DNA of 64,000 nt from an uncultured Actinomycetota bacterium (GCA_963737425.1 CAVTSX010000008.1:353681-417680); one strand, 5' to 3'. Shown: positions 2,748 to 44,344, counted from the first letter of the stretch. Notes: generated by a model not told the origin, from the letters alone. Numbers and translations are program-made.

Positions 2748-4054
2748 CGGTACTCCCGCAACCGCAGCGAGATGCCGCGCACCGAGGCAACAGCGGCGCC
2801 GATCCCGACGATCAGCCCGATCCATGCGAAGGGCGTCAAGGGATCGCGCGCAGTGCCGAGATCGTTGCGCAGTTGGGCCGAGCGCTGGCGAAGCGCCTTG
2901 GCCGACGCGGTGTCGAACGCGCCGAACGCCGCATTGGCATCGGTTGCCGCGGAGCCGGTGGCAAGTGCGACAGCGCCATCCCAGTCGCCACTGTTGTCGG
3001 CCGCGCGGATCTTCTGGTGTACCGCCAGATAGTCGGCGAATGCGTTCTGCGCGGCCTGCTCGTCGGCGCCGCCGCGTTGTGCGGCGTCCTTGAGGATCAT
3101 GCCGGCGTTGGCGGCAAGGTCGTTGAAGCTTGCGTCGTATGCCTGCCCGGACCCGCGCGCGATCAGCGTCAGGCTCTCGGCGCTCTTGGCGTCAAACGCG
3201 TCGATGCGCGCAGTAGCACCCTCGACGGTGGCGAAGTATGCGTTGGAACGGGTCTTGTTGGCCTTGCTCTGGCTCCATGCCATGATGCCGATCAGGACGA
3301 CACCCACCACCAGGACGGCCGCGGTTGCCGTGACGAGCGGTAGGTTCAGCAGGCGGCGGGTGCGCGCGGACAGCCAGATCTGGGTGAAGATCAGCACGGC
3401 CAGCGCCAGCAGCACGCCGATCAGCAGCCAGTAGACGGCGTGCGCACTCGAGGAGTACGAGTGCGCGATGCGCGCCTGCTCGGTCTTGCCGAGATCTTCG
3501 AGCGGTGGCAGCGCGTCGGTGCGCAGCAGGTCGGTGGCCTGACGCAGGTACGCGGCGCCGAGGGGGTAACCCAGGCGGTTGTTGGCCCGGGCCGACTCGA
3601 CCAACCCCGTGTACCGCGTGACGACCTCGTTCACCTTGGCCAGGACGGCTGCGTCGTCTGAGTTGACGCCTGCGGCGTCGGCCAGGGTGGTCGACGCGGT
3701 CGCGATGCCCTGTTCGTACGCGCTGCGGGCGGCGGGCGGCTCCAGGCCGCCGACCAGGAATGCATTGGTCAGGTTCGCGTCGGCGAAGACGAGGTTGGTT
3801 CGGATCGCCTGGATGCGGACCAGCTGCGCCGCGTCCGAGCGTGCACTCGACAGCGCGCTGGCCCGGCTCGAGGCCGCGATGAATGCAAACAGGCCGAAGA
3901 CGAGGCATCCGAGGGCGACGAGCGCACCGTAGAGACGCATGCGTCCGGGCGTGCCCTCGAACGTGGCGCGGGCAACCGTGAGGGCGACCTGCCGGGCATG
4001 GGGCGGCTGCGGCGGGGGCGCGCCCGATTGCTGACCGGTCGCAGTGACCGTCAT
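2744..4054 (-). CDS. glnX: GlnX-like four-TM membrane protein with two large extracytoplasmic helical regions
   Basis: 436 aa. Predicted TM segments: LYGALVALGCLVFGLFAFIAA, VYWLLIGVLLALAVLIFTQIWL, LPLVTATAAVLVVGVVLIGIMAW, FAWIGLIVGIGAAVASV. The topology and the position upstream of glnH-pknG match GlnX. The start A is shared with the stop of the AAA gene (TGATG at 4052-4056). Confidence 0.6.
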   Translation of the reverse strand: MTVTATGQQSGAPPPQPPHARQVALTVARATFEGTPGRMRLYGALVALGCLVFGLFAFIAASSRASALSSARSDAAQLVRIQAIRTNLVFADANLTNAFLVGGLEPPAARSAYEQGIATASTTLADAAGVNSDDAAVLAKVNEVVTRYTGLVESARANNRLGYPLGAAYLRQATDLLRTDALPPLEDLGKTEQARIAHSYSSSAHAVYWLLIGVLLALAVLIFTQIWLSARTRRLLNLPLVTATAAVLVVGVVLIGIMAWSQSKANKTRSNAYFATVEGATARIDAFDAKSAESLTLIARGSGQAYDASFNDLAANAGMILKDAAQRGGADEQAAQNAFADYLAVHQKIRAADNSGDWDGAVALATGSAATDANAAFGAFDTASAKALRQRSAQLRNDLGTARDPLTPFAWIGLIVGIGAAVASVRGISLRLREYR

Positions 4055-5523
4055 CAGATCGTCTTGCTCGTCGTCATGCTGTCCCCATCGTGATTGGGCG
4101 GATGCACCGTATCGGGTAACTCGCCCAGATCGTCAGCGGCCAACTCGCGAAGCTGTTCCACACTCGGATCAGCTTCGTCTCGCAGGCGCCATGCCTGACG
4201 AACGACCGCGGCCTCAAAGAGGTTTCTGACGAAGCGCGCGTTGCCGAATCCGGTGTCGCGCGGGGTGAGCGTCAGAACCTGCCGCAGCCGCTGCACGGCC
4301 TCGTCGGTCGGCGTGAAGTCGGACCCCGCGGCGATCTTGCCGAAGATCTCGACGAGCTGGTCGTCGGTGTAGTCCTCGAAGGTCATCGTCAGGCGGAACC
4401 GGCTCGCGAGGCCCGGGTTGGCGTCGATGAACCCCTGCATCGGGCCGGGGTATCCGGCCACGATCACCACCAGCTCGTCGCGGTGGTCCTCCATCTGCTT
4501 GACCAGCGTCTCGATGGCTTCCTCGCCGTACTCGTCGTCGGCCAGGGCGTACGCCTCGTCGATGAACAGCGCGCCGCCGATCGCCTTGCCGACGATCTCC
4601 GTCGTCTTGAGCGCGGTCTGCCCGACGTAGCCGGCGACCAACGACGAGCGGTCGCTCTCGACGAGTTGCCCTTGCTCGAGGACGCCCAGCGCGCGGTAAA
4701 TGCCGGAGACGAGCCGGGCCACCGTGGTCTTGCCGGTGCCCGGATTGCCGACGAAGACGAGGTGGCGGGTGATGGCCGGGTCGCGCAGCTTCTTCGCGGT
4801 GCGCAGCTTGGCGACACGCAGCACCTCGGCCTGGTGGCGCACCTCGGTCTTGACGGCATCGAGGCCTGTCAGATCGTCGAGTTCGGCAAGCAGTTCATCG
4901 AGCGTCTTGGCCGGCGCCGGTGGGGACGTCAGCACCGTAGGCGCGGGAGACGCCGCGGAGGGAGCCGTCTCGGGTGAATCGCCCGTCGCGCCGGTCGCAG
5001 CACCAGCGGGTGGGCAGTTACGGCCCAGGTGGGCACTTGTATCTGCCCACCCAGGCCCTAACTGCCCACCCACGGGGGAACCTGCCGGGGCGGCCGCGGG
5101 GGAACTTGCCGGGGCGGCGGGCACCGCGGCCAGTTGCGCGGCGGCTATCGCGTTGGCGGTGACGATCGACCGAAGGCTCGGCTCGCCCAGCGAGCACGCG
5201 GCTGATGCGAGTTCGGCCAACGCCTGCGCATAAGGTGTCGCGGCTGCGTCCCCGCGCGTGACGAGACGGCCGAGCACCGCCGTCGGCCGCTTGGCAAATG
5301 GCGTCCCGGCGAGTGCAGCCGCCTCGAAGCCGCTTGCCCGCCCGCTGAAGACGGTTGCCCACTCGGCGTCTGCCCCGTCTGCCCGCTCGCTCGCCGTGGC
5401 GGCGAGAGCGCCCGCTTCAGCCAGAACGCTCGCCTCTGTCTCGCCTGCTGCCACGCCGACCGAGACGAGTGCGTCGGCTGCGACCCGGACGGCGTCGACC
5501 GCCTCGGCGCTCACCCGCCGCAC
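4054..5523 (-). CDS. AAA+ ATPase of the CbxX/SpoVK/EccA type with an Ala-rich N-terminal region
   Basis: Walker A GNPGTGKTTVARL, Walker B GGALFIDEAYAL, and LVVIVAGYPGPM...ANPGLASRF typical of the CbxX/SpoVK family. The low-complexity linker carries repeat copy A. Confidence 0.85.
   Translation of the reverse strand: MRRVSAEAVDAVRVAADALVSVGVAAGETEASVLAEAGALAATASERADGADAEWATVFSGRASGFEAAALAGTPFAKRPTAVLGRLVTRGDAAATPYAQALAELASAACSLGEPSLRSIVTANAIAAAQLAAVPAAPASSPAAAPAGSPVGGQLGPGWADTSAHLGRNCPPAGAATGATGDSPETAPSAASPAPTVLTSPPAPAKTLDELLAELDDLTGLDAVKTEVRHQAEVLRVAKLRTAKKLRDPAITRHLVFVGNPGTGKTTVARLVSGIYRALGVLEQGQLVESDRSSLVAGYVGQTALKTTEIVGKAIGGALFIDEAYALADDEYGEEAIETLVKQMEDHRDELVVIVAGYPGPMQGFIDANPGLASRFRLTMTFEDYTDDQLVEIFGKIAAGSDFTPTDEAVQRLRQVLTLTPRDTGFGNARFVRNLFEAAVVRQAWRLRDEADPSVEQLRELAADDLGELPDTVHPPNHDGDSMTTSKTI
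5008..5071. repeat. 64-bp dyad element, family 1 (GGTGGGCA core), copy A, in frame inside the AAA ATPase gene
   Basis: GGGTGGGCAGTTACGGCCCAGGTGGGCACTTGTATCTGCCCACCCAGGCCCTAACTGCCCACCC. Translated in the gene frame as GGQLGPGWADTSAHLGRNCPP. Confidence 0.85.
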
Positions 5524-12097: not shown

Positions 12098-12107
12098 CCT
12101 GATCACC

Positions 12108-12154
12108 GATCGTGCAACCTTCTGCGGTGCGAGACCGCAGAAAGTTGCACGATC
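12108..12154 (+). terminator. Long hairpin after cobA/hemD (21-bp stem, 1 mismatch, loop GCGAG) followed by TGTGTTTCTG
   Basis: GATCGTGCAACCTTCTGCGGT-gcgag-ACCGCAGAAAGTTGCACGATC, 11 nt after the stop. The outer stem is shared with the hairpin at 50422-50481. Confidence 0.6.
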
Positions 12155-12210
12155 TGTGTTTCTGACCGGGCAGACCACCACGCCCTGGGCCCGGCGTAGG
12201 CTCGAACGCC

Positions 12211-13316: not shown

Positions 13317-14150
13317 ATGACTTCGACCGGATCTCGCGGCACCAAGCGACGGATGATCGCCGCCGGTGCTGGTGGTTTCGCGATCGCCGCGACGTTCCTG
13401 GGCCTCGGCCTCTCGGCGGCGCAAGCCTCGGCAGCACCGCAGGGCGGACTCACGTTGAAGATCACCAGCGCTCAGGTGACCGACGTTGACCAGGACGGCC
13501 GCATCGGCCCGAACGACTCGATCGCCTACACGATGGTGGTGGACAACGAGACCGGCACGACGTTGACCGACCTGCGGATCGACGCGCCGGCAATCGGAAA
13601 CGTCAGCTGCCCGGATGGGCCCATACCTAGCGGTATGCCGTTCCGTTGCCAAACGGACGTGCCCTACAGCCTGACCGACGACGACGTGGACGCCGGTCAT
13701 TTCACGGCGACGGCGACCGCGACCGCGACATCGCCGGACGGCGCGCAGTTGACCAGCCGGCCGGCGAGCACGACGACCAAGATCCCGGCGTATCCGTCGA
13801 TCGCTCTGTCGTTCGACGCCGTCAACACCACCGACGTAAACGGTGACGGCCGAACAGATGCGGGTGACACGATCGACTACTCGCTCGTGCTTACCAACAC
13901 GGGCAATGTGACGGTGCGGGGCGTCGAGGTCAACGACCTGCGCAGCAGCGGCGTGACCTGCGTGGGCGTCCCCGGACCGGTGGATGTCCCGGCTGGAATG
14001 CCGTTCCATTGCCTGAGCAATTCCCCGTACGTGATCACCGCCCAGGACGAAGCGGCCGGCGTGGTCGTCGACAAGGCCACCGCTCGTGGCAAGGCGGCGA
14101 CAGGTAGCCCGGTGCAGGCAAGTGCTGAGGTGACCACCGCGCTCGACTGA
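13317..14150 (+). CDS. Secreted protein with two DUF11/DUF7507-like repeat domains
   Basis: GGAGGA SD 5 nt before the ATG at 13317. Signal peptide with KRRM and AQASA. Two internal repeats (...DGRIGPNDSIAYTMVVDNETGTTLTDL... / ...DGRTDAGDTIDYSLVLTNTGNVTVRGV...), each with a conserved Cys pair. Confidence 0.7.
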   Translation: MTSTGSRGTKRRMIAAGAGGFAIAATFLGLGLSAAQASAAPQGGLTLKITSAQVTDVDQDGRIGPNDSIAYTMVVDNETGTTLTDLRIDAPAIGNVSCPDGPIPSGMPFRCQTDVPYSLTDDDVDAGHFTATATATATSPDGAQLTSRPASTTTKIPAYPSIALSFDAVNTTDVNGDGRTDAGDTIDYSLVLTNTGNVTVRGVEVNDLRSSGVTCVGVPGPVDVPAGMPFHCLSNSPYVITAQDEAAGVVVDKATARGKAATGSPVQASAEVTTALD

Positions 14151-14166: not shown

Positions 14167-14211
14167 ATCTTCATGCGCCGTCGTGCAATCCGCGCGACGG
14201 CGCATGAAGAT
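14167..14211. terminator. Perfect 17-bp-stem hairpin between convergent genes (likely bidirectional terminator)
   Basis: ATCTTCATGCGCCGTCG-tgcaatccgcg-CGACGGCGCATGAAGAT, between stops at 14150 (+) and 14218 (-). Confidence 0.6.
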
Positions 14212-22458: not shown

Positions 22459-23519
22459 CGGTGGCAGTCAACTCGGGGCTCGCACACCTGTCCGACGGGC
22501 TGTTCACGACAGCCATCGCGACCTACTCGCTGGCCATGGCGTGCTACACGGCCGAGTACGCCTTCGGCCGCCGGGGGCGGGTGGCCCAGACCTCGCAGGT
22601 CGCCGAGCCTGCCCGCGTGCTCGTGGGTGCCGGTGGCCCGGCTGTCGATGATGCGCCGTCTGGGGGGCGGTCTTCCGGACCGTCTGCAGGGCCGCCTGCT
22701 GAGCGATCTGCTGCGCCGCCCGCCCAGGAGGCAGGCCGCGCCGCAGGTGATCGCTTCGGGCGGTTCGCCGTCACGCTCACCGTGTTGGGTGCGATCATCC
22801 ACACCGCCTCGGTCGCGCTGCGCGGCATCGCCGTCGACCGCGTGCCATGGGGCAACATGTACGAGTTCTCCGCCGTGGTTGGGCTGATCGCGGTGGTGGC
22901 GTTCCTCGGCGCGTTATGGCGGGCGCCGCAGATCCGCTACCTCGGCCTGTTCGTGATGCTGCCGGTCATATTGATCATGTTCCTGGCCGGCACGGTCCTG
23001 TACGCCAAGGCCGAGCCGCTCGTGCCGGCTCTGCAGTCGTACTGGCTGGCCATCCACGTCTCGGCGGCCGCCAGTTCCGAGGGCATCCTGATGACCAGTG
23101 CCGTCATCACCATGCTGTTCCTCATCCGCCAGCGCTACGACGTCGCGTCCAAGCAGCCCGGACGGCGCATAAGGTTCCCGGTTTCGCTCGGGGCCCGGCT
23201 GCCCGCGCCGGCCACGCTCGACAAGGTGGCCTACCGCACCGTCGCCTTCGCCTTCCCGATTTACACGTTCGGTGTCATCGCCGGCGCGATCTGGGCCGAG
23301 GCCGCGTGGGGGCGCTACTGGGGCTGGGACCCCAAGGAGACGTGGGCGTTCATCGCGTGGGTCATCTACGCCGCGTACCTGCACGCGCGCGCAACGGCCG
23401 GCTGGAAGGGTCGCGCCGCCGCCTGGATCAACCTGCTCGGCTTCGCCGCGATGACCTTCAACTTCTTCGTCGTCAACATCGTCATCTCCGGGCTGCACTC
23501 CTACGCCGGCCTGAACTAG
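22455..23519 (+). CDS. ccsB: c-type cytochrome biogenesis protein CcsB (ResC)
   Basis: Haem-handling WWD motif WGRYWGWDPKETW. GTGA overlap with resB. Pro/Ala/Gly-rich insert after TM1. Confidence 0.9.
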   Translation: MTVAVNSGLAHLSDGLFTTAIATYSLAMACYTAEYAFGRRGRVAQTSQVAEPARVLVGAGGPAVDDAPSGGRSSGPSAGPPAERSAAPPAQEAGRAAGDRFGRFAVTLTVLGAIIHTASVALRGIAVDRVPWGNMYEFSAVVGLIAVVAFLGALWRAPQIRYLGLFVMLPVILIMFLAGTVLYAKAEPLVPALQSYWLAIHVSAAASSEGILMTSAVITMLFLIRQRYDVASKQPGRRIRFPVSLGARLPAPATLDKVAYRTVAFAFPIYTFGVIAGAIWAEAAWGRYWGWDPKETWAFIAWVIYAAYLHARATAGWKGRAAAWINLLGFAAMTFNFFVVNIVISGLHSYAGLN

Positions 23520-23572: not shown

Positions 23573-23636
23573 GGGTGGGCAATTGGGCCGCTAGTGGGCA
23601 GTTATAAGTGCCCACCTGCGGGGTAAGTGCCCACCC
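23573..23636. repeat. 64-bp dyad element, family 1, copy B (intergenic, between convergent ccsB and the pfkB-type kinase gene)
   Basis: GGGTGGGCAATTGGGCCGCTAGTGGGCAGTTATAAGTGCCCACCTGCGGGGTAAGTGCCCACCC. Flanked by an imperfect 28-bp direct repeat (23538-23565 and 23646-23673). Confidence 0.85.
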
Positions 23637-23695
23637 GCGGGGCCCGGGGGTTCGGCCGGGCCGGTGCGGCGCCCCACTCGTGCAGAACGCGTGCG

Positions 23696-24772
23696 TCAGG
23701 CGTCCGAGGTCCGGGCAATCGTGGCGCTTGCCCGGCGGACGGCGCGCATCGGCCCGTCCGGCAGCACGTCGCCGAGGAATTCGTAGCCGTGCGCGAGGAC
23801 GGCGGCCGCCCGGGATCCGCCACGGGCGTGATCTTGCGCCGTGCTCAGCCAGTCGGCGAGGTCGCCCCAGCCCGGAGCCGCGAGCGAACCGCCGACCTGC
23901 TGCACGGAGAGCGCCGCGCACAGATTGGCGAAAGCCAGCCGGTGGCGCAGCGGCCACTCCCGCAACGTGCCGAGGATGAACGCGGCGGCGAAGACGTCGC
24001 CGGCGCCGGTGGCGTCGATCTCGTTGACGGGCAGTGAGGGCACCCACTCGTCCTCGCCCGTCATCGAGTCAACGGCGATCGCGCCCTGCCCGCCACACGT
24101 CACGACCGCGACCGGCACCGAGTCGGCGAGCTGCAGCAATGCTGCACGCGGATCTTCGGTGCGCGTGTAGGCCATCGCCTCGGTGCTGTTGGGCATGAAG
24201 GCGTAGAAGTTCTCCAACTGCGCGAGCAGGTCGGCTGACCACCGCTGGGTGGGATCCCAGCCGACATCGCCGAAGAGCCGCATGCCCTGGCCGCGCGCCT
24301 TGGTCACCCACGCCTCGCTGCCCTCGCCCAGATGCGCGACCCCGGCGGCGGCACGGGGTGGGTCGCCCGCCAGATCGCTCGACGGCATCGGCGCGGGATG
24401 GCTGTGCGTCACCATCGACCGATCGCGGTGCACGGCCAGCGACACGGTCACCGGCGAGTGCCAATCGGGAAAGCGCCGCGACCGGGACAAGTTCACGCCC
24501 TCCTGCTCCTCGAGCGTGCGCCACAGGAACTCGCCGTAGAGGTCGTCGCCGAACGCCGCGGACAGGCTGGTGCGCAGGCCCAGCCGGCTGGCCGCCACGG
24601 CCAGGTTGGCGATACCGCCCGGGCATGACCCCATGCCCTCGGCGAGCACTTCGGTGCCGCGGGCCGGCAACGACGGCAGCCCGGTCAGGACAACGTCGAA
24701 GAACACCGTGCCCTGCAAGAACACGTCGAACTCGGGCTCGTTCATCTGGCCACCTTGCCCCTCATCGCTCAT
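23696..24772 (-). CDS. PfkB-family carbohydrate kinase
   Basis: PfkB signature DATGAGDVFAAAF, N-terminal GG motif (SCPGGIANLAVA). Confidence 0.85.
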   Translation of the reverse strand: MSDEGQGGQMNEPEFDVFLQGTVFFDVVLTGLPSLPARGTEVLAEGMGSCPGGIANLAVAASRLGLRTSLSAAFGDDLYGEFLWRTLEEQEGVNLSRSRRFPDWHSPVTVSLAVHRDRSMVTHSHPAPMPSSDLAGDPPRAAAGVAHLGEGSEAWVTKARGQGMRLFGDVGWDPTQRWSADLLAQLENFYAFMPNSTEAMAYTRTEDPRAALLQLADSVPVAVVTCGGQGAIAVDSMTGEDEWVPSLPVNEIDATGAGDVFAAAFILGTLREWPLRHRLAFANLCAALSVQQVGGSLAAPGWGDLADWLSTAQDHARGGSRAAAVLAHGYEFLGDVLPDGPMRAVRRASATIARTSDA

Positions 24773-26607: not shown

Positions 26608-28584
26608 CTACCCGCCCGTGCTCGACGCCAGGTCGTACACCGTCGTGTTGCCGACCGCCTGGGCCGTGAACGTCGAGGTGATCCATTGCTGGATCTGGTA
26701 CGCCGTCGAGGATTGCGCGTTGCCCGAGCCGATGAAGCCTGACGCGTCCGCTACGTAGTAATGCACCTTTCCTTGCGCCACCAGTTGTTTGAACGCGCTG
26801 AGCGAGATTGCCGGGTCAGTGCCGTTGTAGCCGCCGAGCGACATCGCCGCCTGGCCGGTGCCCAGCTCGAGCGAGGCCGCCTCGTTGTCGCCGGTCGTCG
26901 CGGCAACCCAGCGGTAGGCACCGGCATTGGCCGTGAGCAGTGCCTTGAGCGAGGCGTCTACCGTCGACGCGCCGCCGAGACCGCCGCCGCCCATCGCGCC
27001 GCCGCCCATCGCGCCGCGGCCGGTCCCGAGGCCGCCTGGTGCTAAGCCCGGATTGCCGCCGGGCGCGCCCTGTCTCGTGCCGGGTGGCCCGTTCCGGGGT
27101 CCACCGGGTCCGCCGCCGAAGGTGCTGGATGCCGGCCCGGCACTCGGAATCGCGCCGGTGTGTGCGGTAGAGGCGGTCTGCAGCGAGTACGCGACCGGCC
27201 CAGCGAGCAGTGCGACGGCGACGGTCGTCGCCACGAGCCGGGCCGAACGAGCCGCGAGTACAGCGCCGACTGCGGCGGCGCCCGCGAGCAGAACGACCCA
27301 GCGCAGCCAGGGCGTCCAATCGCTGCGGCCGAGAAGTTCGAAAGTCCACCAGCTTGCGGCCGCCACGAGCGCTGCGAGCGTCAGCCGCGCTCCCTCGCTG
27401 TGGCGTGACCGCCAGAGCGTGGCCACACCCAGGCCGACCAGGGCAGCGATCGCCGGTGCCAATGCCACTGTGTAGTACGGGTGGATGATCCCGCTCGCGA
27501 AGCTGAGCACGGCGCCGGTGACGAGCAGCCAGCCACCCCAGACGATGAGACTCGCCCGTAACGCGTCGGTACGCGGACGGCGGGCGGTCAGCCAGGCCAG
27601 GGCGGCGATCGCGACGAGAGCCGCAGGCAACAACCAGCTGATCTGCGCACCCATTTCGGTGCCGAACAGCCTGGTCAGGCCGGTCTGTCCGGACGAGAAG
27701 CCACCGGTTCGGCCGCTGACGTTGCCGTTGTTGCTCGTCCCGTCCAACCGGCCGAGTCCGTTGTAGCCGAACGTCAACTCCAGGATGCTGTTGCCGTTCG
27801 AACCGCCGATATAAGGACGGGATCCGGCTGGCCACAACTCGACGAGCGCAATCCACCAACCGGCCGCGACGATCATCGTGCCGAGCGCTGCCGTGAGGTG
27901 CCCGACCCGGCGCCAGGGGGTGGTCGGGGCCGCGACCAGATAGGCAGCGCCGAGGCCGGGCACGACGAGCAGGCCCTGCAGCATCTTGGTGAGGAACGCG
28001 AAGCCGATCAGCGCTCCGGCGAGCATGAGCCAGCGCGCGCTTGCTCGCTCCGTCGCCCGTACCGTGGCGTATGCAGCCGCCGTCATCAGCAGGACGAGCA
28101 GCGCATCGGGGTTGTCGAAGCGGAATATCAGCGTCGCCACCGGCGTGGCTGCCAGAATCGCGCCGGCGAGCAACCCGGCAGTGGGCGTCGACACTCTCCG
28201 TACTGCGGCGTACAGAAGTGCGACAGCGGCCATGCCTTCCAATGCCTGTGGAACAAGGATTGACCACGAGCTCAACCCGAAGAGCCGGACCGAGAGGTCC
28301 ATGACCCATAGCGAGGCAGGCGGCTTGTCGACGGTGATGAAGTTCGACTGGTCGAGGGAGCCGAACAGGAATGCCGTCCAGCTCTTGCTGCCCGACTGGG
28401 CGGCGGCCGCGTAGAACTGATTCGCCCACCCGGATCCGGACAGACCCCACGTGTACAGCGCGGCCGTCGCGGTAAGCAGCACGGCCAACGCCGGTGGGCA
28501 CTTACGCCGCAGGTGGGCACTTGCAAGTGCCCACCTGGACGCGAACTGCCCACCCGCGGGGGGAGCGGCGAGCCTCGTGGTCAT
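26608..28584 (-). CDS. Glycosyltransferase family 39 (ArnT/PMT-like) membrane protein with extracytoplasmic C-terminal domain, paralogue 1
   Basis: WANQFYAAAAQSGSKSWTAFLFGSLDQSNFITVDKPPASLW, multiple TM segments, Gly/Pro-rich linker. ATGA overlap with paralogue 2. Codons 10-31 are repeat copy C. Confidence 0.85.
   Translation of the reverse strand: MTTRLAAPPAGGQFASRWALASAHLRRKCPPALAVLLTATAALYTWGLSGSGWANQFYAAAAQSGSKSWTAFLFGSLDQSNFITVDKPPASLWVMDLSVRLFGLSSWSILVPQALEGMAAVALLYAAVRRVSTPTAGLLAGAILAATPVATLIFRFDNPDALLVLLMTAAAYATVRATERASARWLMLAGALIGFAFLTKMLQGLLVVPGLGAAYLVAAPTTPWRRVGHLTAALGTMIVAAGWWIALVELWPAGSRPYIGGSNGNSILELTFGYNGLGRLDGTSNNGNVSGRTGGFSSGQTGLTRLFGTEMGAQISWLLPAALVAIAALAWLTARRPRTDALRASLIVWGGWLLVTGAVLSFASGIIHPYYTVALAPAIAALVGLGVATLWRSRHSEGARLTLAALVAAASWWTFELLGRSDWTPWLRWVVLLAGAAAVGAVLAARSARLVATTVAVALLAGPVAYSLQTASTAHTGAIPSAGPASSTFGGGPGGPRNGPPGTRQGAPGGNPGLAPGGLGTGRGAMGGGAMGGGGLGGASTVDASLKALLTANAGAYRWVAATTGDNEAASLELGTGQAAMSLGGYNGTDPAISLSAFKQLVAQGKVHYYVADASGFIGSGNAQSSTAYQIQQWITSTFTAQAVGNTTVYDLASSTGG
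28492..28555. repeat. 64-bp dyad element, family 1, copy C (in frame, 5' end of GT39 paralogue 1)
   Basis: CGGTGGGCACTTACGCCGCAGGTGGGCACTTGCAAGTGCCCACCTGGACGCGAACTGCCCACCC. The centre at 28511-28536 is a perfect 26-bp palindrome. Read in the gene as GGQFASRWALASAHLRRKCPP. Confidence 0.9.
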
Positions 28585-30590
28585 GAGGTGGCCGTCGTCA
28601 GGTCGTAGACGGTGGATGCACCGACGGTGGTTGCCGTGTAGTTCGCCGCGACCCAGTTGGCGATCTCGCTGTTACCGCCGCCCGGACCGCCCCCGCCGGC
28701 CGCTATGTAGTAGCTGATGTCGCCCGCCGCGACGTATGCCTTGAACTGCGCGAGGGTGGGCGCCGGGTCCGAACCGCTCCAGCCACCGATTGCCATGACG
28801 GCCTTGCCGCTCGCCAGTTCGAGTGACGCGGCGCTCTGGTCCCCAACGGTCGCTGCCGCCCAGCGGGTAGTCGCCTTTTTGAGCAGGCTGGTCAGGGCCG
28901 AATTCGCGGTACTGCCGCCCGAGCCGCCCGTGCCTCCCGTGCCGCCCGTGCCGCGACTCGGCAAGCTGCCGCTCGGTGGCGTGCCGCCTTGCCCGCCGCC
29001 CGGTGCGCCGCTCGGTGGTGTGCCCCTTTGCGTGCCGCTCGGTGGCGTGCCGCCTTGCCCGCCGCCCGGCGCACCGCCCAGACCTCCTCGTGCGTCACCG
29101 ATGCCCGAAGTCACTGCCGGCCCCGCCGAGGGCGTGCTGCCGTTGTGGGGTGCAGCGGCCGTACTCAGCGCATACGCCGACGACGCGCCGGTGGCGACGA
29201 CCAGTCCGACGACGCCGACGGCCATGGCGCCGCGAGCCAGCCGTTGTGGCGGCACGAGCAGCGCGACGGCAGTGCCGAGGGCGAGCACGAGCAGCAGTGG
29301 GCGCAGCCACGGGTTCCAATCAGGTGAGCGCGAAAGCAGTTCGAAGCTCCACGCTCCGGTCGCCGCGACGCCGGCCGCGAGGGCCACGCGGGCGCCGAGG
29401 CGGGATCGGTTGCGCCACATGACGACCGAGCCGACGCCGACCAGCGCGGCGATCGGCGGTGCCAGTTCAACGGTGTAGTAGGGATGGATGATGCCGCCCG
29501 CATAGCTCAGCACCAGGCCGGTGACAACGAGCCAGCCACCCCAGAGCACAGCTGCAGCGCGCACCTTGTCGACGCGTGGCGTCCCCCGGCTGATGACAGC
29601 CAGCGCGACGAGCGCGATCAATGCTGCTGGCAGCAACCAGGAGATCTGCGTGCCCATTTCGGAGTTGAACAGCCGGCCCGGCCCGGCGGGACCGCTGAAG
29701 TTCGGCCCGCCTCCGCCGCCTGCACTGCCCGTCTCGTCGCCGGTGATGCGGCCGAGCCCGTTGTAGCCGAAGGCAAGGTCTAGCGCGCTGTTGTTCTTCG
29801 AGCCGCCGATGTATGGACGATCCGACGCCGGCCACAGCGCGACGGCAAGCACCCACCAGGCCGCTCCCGCGGCAAGCGCGACGCTCGCTGCGAAAAGGTG
29901 CGCGAGTCGCCGGCGCAGGGTGCCGTTCGAGGCGAGGAGGTAGAACAGCGCCAGAGCGGGTAGCACGGTGAACGGCTGCAGGCCCTTGGTGAGGAAGTTC
30001 AGGCCCATGACGCCGCCCGCCAGCAGCATCCACCGCAGCCGACCGTCGTCCACTGCGCGGGTGACGAAATAGGCCGCCGCGACAAGGAGAAGCGTCATCA
30101 GGGCGTCTGGCTGGTCGAACCGAAACATCAGGACGGCCACCGGGGTGACGGCGAGCAGGCCGCCGGCGATGAGACCGGCGACCGGCCCGAACCATCTCCG
30201 TACCGTGGCGTATAGAAGCGCTACGGCTAGGACTCCCTCAAGGGCCTGCGGCACCAGCAGGGTCCAGCTGTTGAAGCCGAAGAGCCGTCCGGCCAGCTCC
30301 ATCGGCCAAAGCGACAGCGGTGGCTTGTCGACGGTGATGAAGTTCGACTGGTCGAGCGATCCGAAGAAGAACGCCTTCCAGTTCTTCGTTCCCGCCTGGA
30401 CGGCGGCGGCGTAGAACTCGTTGCCGTATCCCGAAGCCGAGAGCCCCCACAGGTAGAGCAGCGCCGTCGCGCCGAGCAAAGCTACCAACGTGGGTGGGCA
30501 CTTACGCCGCAGGTGGGCACTTGCAACTGCCCACCTGCGCGGCAACTGCCCACCGGTGGAGGGGGCGGGCGGCGTCAATACAGCAGTCAT
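28581..30590 (-). CDS. Glycosyltransferase family 39 (ArnT/PMT-like) membrane protein, paralogue 2
   Basis: YGNEFYAAAVQAGTKNWKAFFFGSLDQSNFITVDKPPLSLW. ATGA overlap with the GT2 gene stop. Codons 12-33 are repeat copy D. The GTPPSG-repeat linker sits before the C-terminal domain. Confidence 0.85.
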   Translation of the reverse strand: MTAVLTPPAPSTGGQLPRRWAVASAHLRRKCPPTLVALLGATALLYLWGLSASGYGNEFYAAAVQAGTKNWKAFFFGSLDQSNFITVDKPPLSLWPMELAGRLFGFNSWTLLVPQALEGVLAVALLYATVRRWFGPVAGLIAGGLLAVTPVAVLMFRFDQPDALMTLLLVAAAYFVTRAVDDGRLRWMLLAGGVMGLNFLTKGLQPFTVLPALALFYLLASNGTLRRRLAHLFAASVALAAGAAWWVLAVALWPASDRPYIGGSKNNSALDLAFGYNGLGRITGDETGSAGGGGGPNFSGPAGPGRLFNSEMGTQISWLLPAALIALVALAVISRGTPRVDKVRAAAVLWGGWLVVTGLVLSYAGGIIHPYYTVELAPPIAALVGVGSVVMWRNRSRLGARVALAAGVAATGAWSFELLSRSPDWNPWLRPLLLVLALGTAVALLVPPQRLARGAMAVGVVGLVVATGASSAYALSTAAAPHNGSTPSAGPAVTSGIGDARGGLGGAPGGGQGGTPPSGTQRGTPPSGAPGGGQGGTPPSGSLPSRGTGGTGGTGGSGGSTANSALTSLLKKATTRWAAATVGDQSAASLELASGKAVMAIGGWSGSDPAPTLAQFKAYVAAGDISYYIAAGGGGPGGGNSEIANWVAANYTATTVGASTVYDLTTATS
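28971..29069. repeat. 33-bp tandem repeat (3 units, outer two identical) in the GT39 paralogue 2 linker
   Basis: GCTCGGTGGCGTGCCGCCTTGCCCGCCGCCCGG at 28971-29003 and 29037-29069, with a diverged unit between them. It encodes the GGTPPSG-type repeats. Confidence 0.85.
30492..30555. repeat. 64-bp dyad element, family 1, copy D (in frame, 5' end of GT39 paralogue 2)
   Basis: GGGTGGGCACTTACGCCGCAGGTGGGCACTTGCAACTGCCCACCTGCGCGGCAACTGCCCACCG. Read in the gene as GGQLPRRWAVASAHLRRKCPP. Confidence 0.9.
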
Positions 30591-39032: not shown

Positions 39033-39964
39033 CCGACCCCGTTCGCGATGAGGTTGAGCAATCGCCCGGCCCAGGCGTGAAGGCCGGTCCTACGGGTGGC
39101 GTAAGGAAGTTCTTCCGGCTGGTCATGATCGAGCACTCGGTATTCGCCCTGCCGTTCGCCTACATCGCGGCGCTGACGGCGATGTGGAGTGAGAGCCGCT
39201 CGGTGCACTGGTGGGAGCTGGTGCTCATCACGGTCGCCATGGTGTCGGCTCGGACGGTGGCGATGAGCGCCAACCGCATCCTCGACCGCGGCTTCGATGC
39301 GCTGAACCCCCGTACCGCCAAGCGCGAACTGGTCACCGGCGAGATGTCGGTGCGTTCGGCGTGGACGGGCACTGTCGTCGCCCTGGTGGTGTTCCTGGCC
39401 TCGGCGGCTGCGCTGTCGTGGCTGTGCCTGGTGCTGGCGCCGGTCGCGGTCGGGCTGCTCGTCCTCTACTCGTACGGCAAGCGGTTCACCGACTTTCCGC
39501 AGGTGCTGCTTGCGCTTGCGCAGATGGTGGCACCGGTCGGGGCGTGGCTCGCCGTCACCGGGCAGCTGAGCTGGGCCTCGTTCGCCTTGGGCCTCGCGGT
39601 CGGCACGTGGATCGGCGGCTTCGATCTCATCTACTCCTGCCAGGACGCCGAGGTCGACCGGCGCATCGGCTCGCGCTCGTTCCCGGCACGGTTCGGCATT
39701 CCGGCCGCCTTGCGCGCGTCCGCGATCGTGCACGTCGGCACGTTCGCCTGCTTCGCATGGTTCGGTGCCGCCGCAGGTCTTGGCTGGTTGTGGTGGACGG
39801 GCCTGGCGCTCACCGCGGTCGTCCTCGCCTACGAGCACCGCATCGTCCGCGCCGACGACCTGAGCCGGGTGAACCGCGCGTTCTTCACCGCCAACGGCGT
39901 CATCGGCATCGGACTGTTCGGGTTCGCTCTGGCCGACCTGATCGTCCAAGGGCTGGGCGCATGA
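39029..39964 (+). CDS. ubiA: UbiA-family aromatic prenyltransferase (menaquinone prenylation type)
   Basis: ATGA overlap with the ubiD stop. IEHSVFALPFAYIAAL, NRILDRGFDALNPRT (NxxxD motif), CQDAEVDRRIG (second Asp-rich motif). Confidence 0.85.
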   Translation: MTDPVRDEVEQSPGPGVKAGPTGGVRKFFRLVMIEHSVFALPFAYIAALTAMWSESRSVHWWELVLITVAMVSARTVAMSANRILDRGFDALNPRTAKRELVTGEMSVRSAWTGTVVALVVFLASAAALSWLCLVLAPVAVGLLVLYSYGKRFTDFPQVLLALAQMVAPVGAWLAVTGQLSWASFALGLAVGTWIGGFDLIYSCQDAEVDRRIGSRSFPARFGIPAALRASAIVHVGTFACFAWFGAAAGLGWLWWTGLALTAVVLAYEHRIVRADDLSRVNRAFFTANGVIGIGLFGFALADLIVQGLGA

Positions 39965-39990
39965 GACGCGGTCTGCTCTCGTCACCTCAG

Positions 39991-40058
39991 TTGAGTGGTG
40001 AGTTATCGCTTGAGTGGTGCGTTGTAACGCACCACTCAAGCCCAAACGCACCACTCAA
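39991..40058. repeat. 68-bp dyad element, family 2 (TTGAGTGGTGC core), copy F, 19 nt upstream of ubiX
   Basis: TTGAGTGGTG-AGTTATCGC-TTGAGTGGTGCGTTGTAACGCACCACTCAA-GCCCAAAC-GCACCACTCAA. It has two direct and two inverted cores with a central palindrome. Confidence 0.85.
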
Positions 40059-44255: not shown

Positions 44256-44344
44256 TTGAGTGGTGCATTTCGGTCTCGAGTGGTGCGTTTCGGGCTCGAG
44301 TGGTGCGTTATAACTCACCACTCGAGCCCAAACGCACCACTCAA
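44256..44344. repeat. 89-bp dyad element, family 2, copy G (three direct + two inverted cores), 35 nt upstream of mqnE
   Basis: TTGAGTGGTGC-ATTTCGGTC-TCGAGTGGTGC-GTTTCGGGC-TCGAGTGGTGCGTTATAACTCACCACTCGA-GCCCAAAC-GCACCACTCAA. Confidence 0.85.

Follow-up and report, generated by a model that had tools for sequence, protein, structure and literature searches.

A dispersed palindromic repeat with a four-box architecture, probably REP/BIME-like, in Jatrophihabitantaceae-like Actinomycetota

The element and its genomic surroundings

A stretch of 64,000 nucleotides from an uncultured Actinomycetota bacterium (GCA_963737425.1, CAVTSX010000008.1:353681-417680; the whole stretch is referred to below as the window) contains a 64-bp dyad element, which an earlier note had described in five copies and compared with the palindromic elements of Rickettsia. 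The analysis presented here indicates that the element is likely to belong to a dispersed, mostly extragenic repeat found at the 3' ends of genes, similar to repetitive extragenic palindromes (REP) and bacterial interspersed mosaic elements (BIME) and governed by a new grammar of four boxes. The unit comprises approximately 70-80 bp and consists of four 13-nt boxes, Y-GAGTGG-NNNN-TT, two of them direct and then two inverted. All five copies of the earlier note were found at the coordinates given for them and align over 64 bp to their consensus, and a scan that does not prescribe the core revealed two additional units with a GAGTGGTG core which that note did not contain, so that the window holds 7 units in 64 kb, about one unit per 9 kb. 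The units, together with the genes in which or between which they are located, are listed below.

5008..5071: copy A of family 1 (GGTGGGCA core), read on the minus strand as GGQLGPGWADTSAHLGRNCPP, inside the open reading frame (ORF) 4054-5523(-), in the linker between a conserved N-domain and the AAA+ domain
4054..5523, minus strand: host of copy A, an AAA+ ATPase (PF00004, PF17866) whose N-terminal domain is conserved
23573..23636: copy B of family 1, intergenic between convergent genes, the most diverged copy
ending at 23519, plus strand: cytochrome c assembly gene, left neighbour of copy B
ending at 23696, minus strand: kinase-like gene, right neighbour of copy B
28492..28555: copy C of family 1, codons ~10-31 of the GT39 paralogue 26608-28584(-)
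30492..30555: copy D of family 1, codons ~12-33 of the GT39 paralogue 28581-30590(-)
26608..30590, minus strand: hosts of copies C and D, a tandem pair of GT39/PMT_2-family glycosyltransferases, paralogues that share 52% identity
51313..51376: copy E of family 1, in the spacer of a same-strand gene pair
39993..40056: family 2 unit, core (T/C)GAGTGGTG(A/C)GTT, same four-box architecture, between ubiA-like and ubiX-like genes
~44258..44342: family 2 variant with five boxes (three direct, two inverted), located between divergent genes and upstream of the radical-SAM gene

In the dialect of the window the box is written GGTGGGCA-NTT, the full 13-nt box being YGAGTGGNNNNTT, and the box starts are spaced 19/20/19 bp around a TTRYAA centre. 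The window contains 24 occurrences of the octamer GGTGGGCA, with 2.9 expected, and none of 100 shuffles came up to 24; the pattern of the inner palindrome gives 10 matches against 0.08 expected. The perfect 26-bp inner palindrome reported at 28511-28536 can be read directly in the sequence, the dyad itself however runs approximately 3 nt beyond the 64 bp on each side, which corrects its total length to about 70 bp. All copies fold into hairpins with arms of about 30 bp, as had been claimed, and they do so on both strands (z = -4.7 to -9.1). Copy E is situated 21-22 bp upstream of the start of an ArsR-family gene and about 20 bp past the stop of a VOC/glyoxalase-like gene.

Architecture and distribution of the four-box family

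A search for more copies had been proposed as a check on the element, and relatives were found to carry many of them. The core-agnostic scan recovered 117 four-box units in 872 kb of DNA from about 35 Jatrophihabitantaceae-like metagenome-assembled genomes (MAGs) and none in shuffled DNA. Several positions which the search pattern leaves free are nevertheless conserved: the Y (C or T) before the box in 100%, the TT after the N4 in 85-87%, and the TTRYAA of the loop or centre. Boxes are nearly confined to complete units, with 347 inside and 26 outside. Each genome has one or two dominant cores, and one MAG, MFD00822.bin.3.64, shares the pair present in the window. The DNA of distant GT39 homologues carries the same dyad architecture with other cores, namely GAGTGGGCA in locus L003, GAGTGGTC in L002 and GAGTGGCGCG in the L002 paralogue. 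In addition to complete units, an expanded array with added direct boxes 5' of the unit and a period of 19-20 nt was observed at L040:794-897, and two whole units 137 bp apart, with a flanking 12-bp repeat common to both, at L065:6488-6688; these two arrays imply that boxes as well as whole units undergo slippage or tandem duplication.

When 185,579 species genomes were scanned for the architecture, at least 100 matches were obtained, and among the matches listed all but one come from Jatrophihabitans, Jatrophihabitantaceae, Pseudonocardiales-labelled or unnamed Actinomycetota MAGs; units per genome and taxonomic range are to be read as lower bounds. The single taxonomic exception (L045, CAZZZW010000021.1, unit core GAGTGGCTA) is labelled as a MAG of Oscillatoria nigro-viridis, the contig has 68% G+C, and it is probably an actinomycete contig mis-binned into a cyanobacterial MAG. 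The 64-bp dyad is likely to be one genome-specific dialect of a larger superfamily of palindromic repeats which, as sampled, is confined to Jatrophihabitantaceae-like Actinomycetota. The earlier note was not aware of any equivalent in actinomycetes, and literature searches did not yield a description there either. Rfam at gathering thresholds gave no match over the window, the permissive mode gave only sub-threshold matches to models of eukaryotic miRNA hairpins, and searches for the element among plasmids, phages and viral contigs returned no matches.

Position of the units relative to genes

Gene calls were made with an own codon-usage gene caller trained on these loci; calling of gene context from G+C at the third codon position (GC3) alone was dropped because it is too noisy at a GC3 of about 0.82. 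Since the loci were chosen for carrying a unit, only the relative occupancies of spacers are meaningful. Intergenic location was found for 100 of the 117 units (about 85%). A unit occupies 26.5% of convergent, 9.9% of tandem and 8.2% of divergent spacers, which means that convergent spacers are occupied about three times as often (Fisher p = 2e-5 versus tandem and 6e-4 versus divergent spacers), and the usual distance of a unit from the stop codon is 10-40 bp.

Units inside a longest ORF are a minority (17/117), and 16 of these 17 share one phase. Individual reading of the host ORFs showed that most of them are 5' leaders in which the recognisable protein starts downstream of the unit; a DnaE2-like gene, an oxidoreductase, an acyl-CoA carboxylase beta-subunit-like gene and a cyclase are hosts of this kind. 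Approximately 5-8 of the 117 units are convincingly translated. A separate case was noted at L024:3151-5241, where the ORF of an MFS transporter passes through a four-box unit without a stop and continues in frame into an oxidoreductase of Gfo/Idh/MocA type; either the unit removed the stop codon of the transporter or the fusion is real.

A further inverted repeat of the window (14167-14211, ATCTTCATGCGCCGTCGTGC / GCGCGACGGCGCATGAAGAT), with 20-nt arms that are 95% complementary, is situated between two ORFs that converge on it and stop at 14147 (+) and 14221 (-). It has no relationship with the four-box family and looks like an ordinary hairpin of bidirectional terminator type.

Translated copies and reading phase

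Copies A, C and D lie in long ORFs and are read in one shared phase, base 1 of the element being codon position 3, and the mirror phase on the opposite strand is stop-free for all three, both of which agree with the earlier description. Of 23 element-strand readings in the window family, 15 lack a stop in phase 0, 14 in phase 1 and 20 in phase 2; as all phases are often stop-free, the shared phase is not forced by stops, and it is weak evidence coming from only two independent coding sites. Over all units the common phase is stop-free in 71% compared with 35% for the other two phases, and across the 117 units it largely reflects which frame is stop-free.

It was expected that the element could be translated without breaking a gene, and this is the case for copy A, which is internal to a conserved two-domain AAA ATPase: frame 0 is the only one in which the 135 codons upstream in its host score as coding, and 22 orthologues share the conserved N-domain. 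The closest orthologues are without the copy A segment, a clean insertion is however not demonstrable because the entire linker is unalignable and other palindromes are present there in relatives. Directly upstream of copy A on the sense strand of the ATPase, at window positions 5090-5140, a tandem duplication of about 24 bp (CCCCGGCAAGTTCCCCCGCGG / CCCCGGCAGGTTCCCCCGTGG) abuts the element and encodes the peptide PAAPASSP/AAAPAGSP. Both GT39 paralogues start with an overlap of the upstream gene's stop (ATGA), and in the GT39 orthologue P0078 the stretch from the element to the first membrane helix offers no other codon at which translation could start. In ERZ25039490, a close relative, the second GT39 paralogue (L001:11995-14004) retains the N-terminal unit, but from about codon 440 onwards its frame reads as Arg-rich nonsense, and the gene calls deposited for it are fragments; it is likely to be a pseudogene or the product of an assembly frameshift. 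An internal copy with three direct boxes was also detected in P0241, an unrelated protein of 357 aa. The profile of the element peptide matched 24 proteins among 1.84 billion representatives, 19 of which are 36-131 aa long. The translated copies in the N-terminal tails of GT39 and in the AAA linker would seem to be passengers that are tolerated because of no more than their place in disordered segments, with no function as protein modules.

On the basis of such copies the element could be regarded as a counterpart of the Rickettsia palindromic elements (RPE), adapted to in-frame insertion into genes in either orientation and adding a peptide of 21-22 aa as a tolerated or useful module. This explanation draws on the translation of copies A, C and D in one phase, on the closest AAA orthologues without copy A, on the internal copy in the unrelated P0241 and on phase 2 being the one most often free of stops, but it has to account for the few convincingly translated units among so many leader artefacts, for the small yield of mostly short proteins from the peptide profile and for the enrichment of units at gene 3' ends, and it is further weakened by the very frequent location of RPEs in ORFs (PMC10969869), where these units are rarely found. 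It is considered very unlikely. Behaviour in the manner of RPEs is not supported as the defining trait, most units being intergenic, and the Rickettsia analogy covers a minority behaviour.

The reverse possibility, that GGQL..RWA..SAHL..NCPP is an ancestral protein motif of GT39, was connected in the earlier note with conservation of the peptide, but not of the DNA, in distant orthologues. One part of this stands, since about 20 distant GT39 orthologues have a similar peptide (SG.F..EW.....HS..N.PL) at the same N-terminal position; the other part does not, as the DNA of those orthologues carries the four-box dyad and this DNA architecture is the conserved layer. The element DNA is present in intergenic spacers and in the unrelated ATPase as well, and other GT39 orthologues at 72-78% identity are without the peptide. 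Furthermore, offsets of 19 and 20 nt from one box start to the next cause the hexamer to be read in different frames at the four boxes, a pattern of identical boxes that constraint at the protein level could not produce. One hexamer in several frames, together with the intergenic units, points to a DNA element, and the ancestral protein motif can be regarded as effectively refuted.

Mobility of the units

Between ubiA and ubiX the two genes overlap by 4 bp (ATGA) in the relative L002, and in the window about 110 bp with the family 2 unit are inserted at this place. The insertion is bracketed by two copies of a hexamer, and a longer direct repeat surrounds copy B:

39960..39965, plus strand: CATGAG, left copy, carrying the ubiA stop codon
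40076..40081, plus strand: CATGAG, right copy, carrying the ubiX start codon
23547..23558, plus strand: GCCGGGCCGGTG, 12-bp direct repeat left of copy B, possible target duplication
23655..23666, plus strand: GCCGGGCCGGTG, 12-bp direct repeat right of copy B, possible target duplication

In locus L039 two copies 2.6 kb apart are identical over 79 bp (CCCGTT + 64 bp + AACGAGACT). The element is new at some sites and has been copied to new places. Flanking direct repeats of at least 10 bp accompany 4.4% of units versus 1.3% of controls, and those of at least 12 bp accompany 2.6% versus 0.1%; the flanking repeats (6-12 bp, about 4% of units) are found at variable distance and with non-conserved spacers.

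On their 5' side the units are bordered by C-rich DNA, and on their 3' side by G-rich DNA (45-57% G) in which T is scarce at each position. The C-rich and G-rich flanks and the repeated occupation of the same sites had raised the idea that units insert into older hairpins. It was rejected, as removal of the unit leaves flanks whose folding (-26.8 kcal/mol) is not better than that of mismatched flanks (-26.3 kcal/mol, p = 0.44), and complementarity ends 3-4 nt outside the unit.

Conserved sites with changing dialects

Units were repeatedly found at orthologous sites of different genomes. In the ArsR leader the units of the window and of L036 are in exact register, 21-22 bp from the start, and their four boxes differ in parallel. 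The spacer at pyrE has a unit in 4 genomes whose PyrE proteins are 65-78% identical, a unit is located at the orthologous site at the 3' end of an FO-synthase-like gene in different lineages, and units at the orthologous site in the GT39 N-terminus each have the dialect of their own genome. Orthologous sites in register with genome-specific cores indicate homogenisation or replacement in place. The paralogous copies C and D are identical in 57 of 64 positions (89%) with flanks at 71% and proteins at 52%, and copy D and the orthologous element at L001:10036 are identical in 61 of 64 (95%) with flanks at 86.7%. The suggestion that C and D are related through the duplication of the GT39 gene must be modified, because simple co-divergence since the duplication fails to explain 57/64 against 71% in the flanks. 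Chimeric units also occur, in which both families of a genome are combined, as at L092:2362 and L036:1685. These observations imply homogenisation of the units within genomes.

A set of operator sites, bound by a sequence-specific protein (a tetramer or two dimers on one helix face) and forming a regulon or a nucleoid-organising set without mobility, would explain part of these data. The four equivalent boxes are about two helical turns apart with invariant GAGTGG and TT, they are equally alike without preference for the hairpin partner (similarity of 0.77-0.82 for all box pairs), there is no strand asymmetry, orthologous sites are conserved and several units are fixed 21-50 bp upstream of starts (ArsR, the DnaE2-like gene and others). 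Such a set is nevertheless unlikely, since units favour positions past stops and convergent spacers, the N4 is uniform within a genome and different between genomes as predicted by copying and not by independent operators, presence/absence differences and identical 79-bp copies occur, and the density reaches one unit per about 9 kb. Known actinobacterial operators (HAIR, CTTGAGT-N7-ACTCAAG; CIRCE; DasR dre) were ruled out on spacing and orientation.

Palindromes of other kinds were encountered at or near the same genes. An intergenic palindrome of a different family is present in the window at 12104-12158 (GATCGTGCAAC...GTTGCACGATC, 25-nt arms, 92% complementary). A closely related perfect palindrome (CGTGCAACCGTCGGCGTC/GACGCCGACGGTTGCACA) is translated in the AAA linker of L105 at the position of copy A, and the AAA orthologues P0122 and P0123 have the matching peptide, LPDRAT..VAQSP. 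A third type (GGTTGTGGCCGCCCAG...CTGGGCGGCAAAAACC, peptide GCGRPGGYTTLGGKNREAPP) was observed in the linker of the AAA orthologue at L106:6001-7347, and another linker peptide, GFGHQ.SNNRPGDQNQ, in the orthologues P0150, P0152 and P0162. Unrelated palindromes at the AAA linker in other lineages suggest that some permissive sites attract or retain palindromes generally. Other GT39 homologues (P0009-P0012, P0015, P0026, P0029, P0037) were noticed to have a different recurring peptide at this N-terminal position, such as SPRSETPEPPSLNTEIRHS or DSPSLI.RNRHS; it looks palindromic when back-translated by eye and may represent a further element family.

Interpretation

The constraint on the unit acts on DNA, neither on protein nor on a simple RNA stem. 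The explanation that best accommodates these data, and is held with good confidence, is that of a REP/BIME-like repeat dispersed mostly outside genes at their 3' ends. It can be assumed that its copies would be made and homogenised by an activity which recognises the boxes or by gene conversion among the copies, and that transcripts crossing a unit would end in or carry a very stable hairpin serving, in the style of REP/BIME, as a 3'-end barrier, stabiliser or insulator. The role of a 3' barrier or stabiliser at the RNA level is plausible; it fits the location and the stability of the units but not the patterns of substitution.

Several results weigh against this interpretation and have to be set beside it. 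With respect to an RNA hairpin, G.U and A.C mispairs relative to transcription are nearly balanced, 15 versus 16 in the in-ORF units and 39 versus 46 in tandem spacers. The split patterns of the boxes were abba in 37, aabb in 30 and abab in 14 cases, so that the hairpin-consistent pattern (37) hardly exceeds the inconsistent one (30). Watson-Crick pairing is present at 49% of the positions in the 7-nt linkers, and as no T-tract follows the hairpin the unit is not a canonical intrinsic terminator. With respect to mobility, the evidence for target duplication is contradictory, since repeats of 10-12 bp accompany about 4% of units but the youngest pair of copies, that in L039, is without a flanking duplication, and a search for target duplications of fixed length gave no excess at any fixed offset for repeats of at least 3 bp. 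Between the L039 copies there is no transposase, only regulators and a membrane protein; the 739 genes near units include no recurrent transposase-like neighbour, and a mobilising or binding protein was not found among them; and 872 kb contain no separated half-units flanking a gene, that is, no autonomous parent with split ends. Moreover, the unit density given for the source genome is that of the 64-kb window. Selection on the RNA of the sense strand, which had been suggested by the better sense folds of copies A, C and D, found no support in 57 oriented units and was discarded.

The same results bear on the possibility that the units are vertically inherited cis-acting RNAs, either terminators without a U-tract or processing sites like the TRIT motif, under selection for the hairpin and without mobility. 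Very stable hairpins, location at 3' ends and in convergent spacers, sites kept across lineages and the existence of a named repeated terminator motif in M. tuberculosis (PMC3384566) would all be in agreement with it. Nevertheless, apart from the lack of mispair asymmetry, the weak compensatory signal, the half-paired linkers and the missing T-tract, such RNAs would leave unexplained the parallel change in boxes that do not pair (1 with 2, 3 with 4), which stem maintenance does not require, as well as the insertion polymorphism and the identical dispersed copies, and no Rfam match rose above noise. Only a small probability is given to this explanation, and the REP/BIME-like repeat is retained.

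Within the reading as a REP/BIME-like repeat it is tentatively possible, although rather doubtful, that the unit is the recognition site of a box-specific factor (a recombinase, an HUH-type nuclease or other) which copies the unit and rewrites the resident ones. If this is true, all copies, including the fixed orthologous ones and those in genes, would track one evolving dialect. It would mean a new partnership of a repeat and a factor, analogous to that of REP-derived REPINs and REP-associated tyrosine transposases (RAYT) but with a different architecture and in a different host phylum, and it would give a tractable case of genome-wide concerted evolution among dispersed short repeats.

Comparison with known repeat systems

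The closest resemblance is to REP, BIME and REPIN sequences, which are likewise short, high-copy and mostly extragenic palindromic repeats located after stops and in operon spacers, forming a long hairpin from inverted halves, with a species-specific consensus and vertical persistence. Homogenisation of REPs by gene conversion is said to have been proposed by Higgins et al. in 1988. The differences are in the build of the unit. A REP unit is an imperfect palindrome (about 20-40 nt) with a GTAG-like head, whereas the 13-nt box has neither dyad symmetry nor GTAG; complementarity in the four-box unit exists only between pairs of boxes, and the unit is a strict array of two direct and two inverted boxes at fixed spacing. 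In the REPIN-RAYT system a single-copy RAYT (Y1/HUH) is flanked by repeats, whereas no RAYT was seen in the approximately 0.9 Mb searched. The four-box hosts are a high-GC actinomycete group, unmentioned in a RAYT survey, and a minority of the copies are translated.

RPEs, which are about 100-150 bp long and very often inside ORFs (PMC10969869), are similar in being palindromic, in the ability to sit in frame and add a peptide, and in the presence of several families per genus. They differ in the preference for ORFs set out above and in the absence of any sequence relationship, and the shared phase of the four-box units is largely a stop-codon effect. With miniature inverted-repeat transposable elements (MITE) such as Correia, enterobacterial repetitive intergenic consensus (ERIC) and BOX elements the units share small size (a dyad of about 70 bp), non-coding nature, inverted-repeat ends, multiple copies, insertion polymorphism and variants with extra internal repeats. 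Beside their occasional flanking repeats they show, in contrast to MITEs, neither a target duplication of fixed length nor conserved tips, and neither the 872 kb nor plasmids, phages and viral contigs yielded an insertion sequence with matching ends that could be their parent. Actinomycetes are not mentioned in a 2024 review of prokaryotic MITEs (PMC10969869).

The nearest actinobacterial precedent is TRIT of M. tuberculosis, a repeated terminator motif at defined mRNA 3' ends (PMC3384566), which like the present unit is a repeated hairpin motif, the two being compared by description. TRIT was described as a terminator, whereas any role of the four-box unit in termination is conjectural. We know of no report of a four-box architecture or of genome-specific dialects for TRIT. 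DNA uptake sequences (DUS) and uptake signal sequences (USS) also have lineage-specific dialects, often stand as inverted pairs after genes and use tolerated reading frames inside genes. The four-box family resembles them in having short motifs with lineage dialects, paired and inverted after genes and sometimes in coding frames, with the difference that its boxes are almost never single. To our knowledge natural competence is not known for the Jatrophihabitantaceae-like group.

Significance

Dispersed palindromic repeats are well studied in Proteobacteria and hardly described in high-GC Gram-positive bacteria. The four-box family offers a clear grammar, with fixed spacing and with a constant and a variable part in each box, and about 35 MAGs that carry it. 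It also gives a rare signal, in which an intergenic or intragenic site keeps the element across lineages with flanking proteins 65-80% identical while the four boxes change in parallel, and this makes it a testable question whether it is gene conversion, a dedicated enzyme or turnover at hot spots that maintains the similarity of the repeats. Practical consequences exist as well: gene callers make spurious small ORFs and false N-terminal extensions from the units, and short-read assemblies of these bacteria, which are abundant in soil, are likely to break at them. In real proteins, namely GT39 and the AAA ATPase, the units add about 22 residues.

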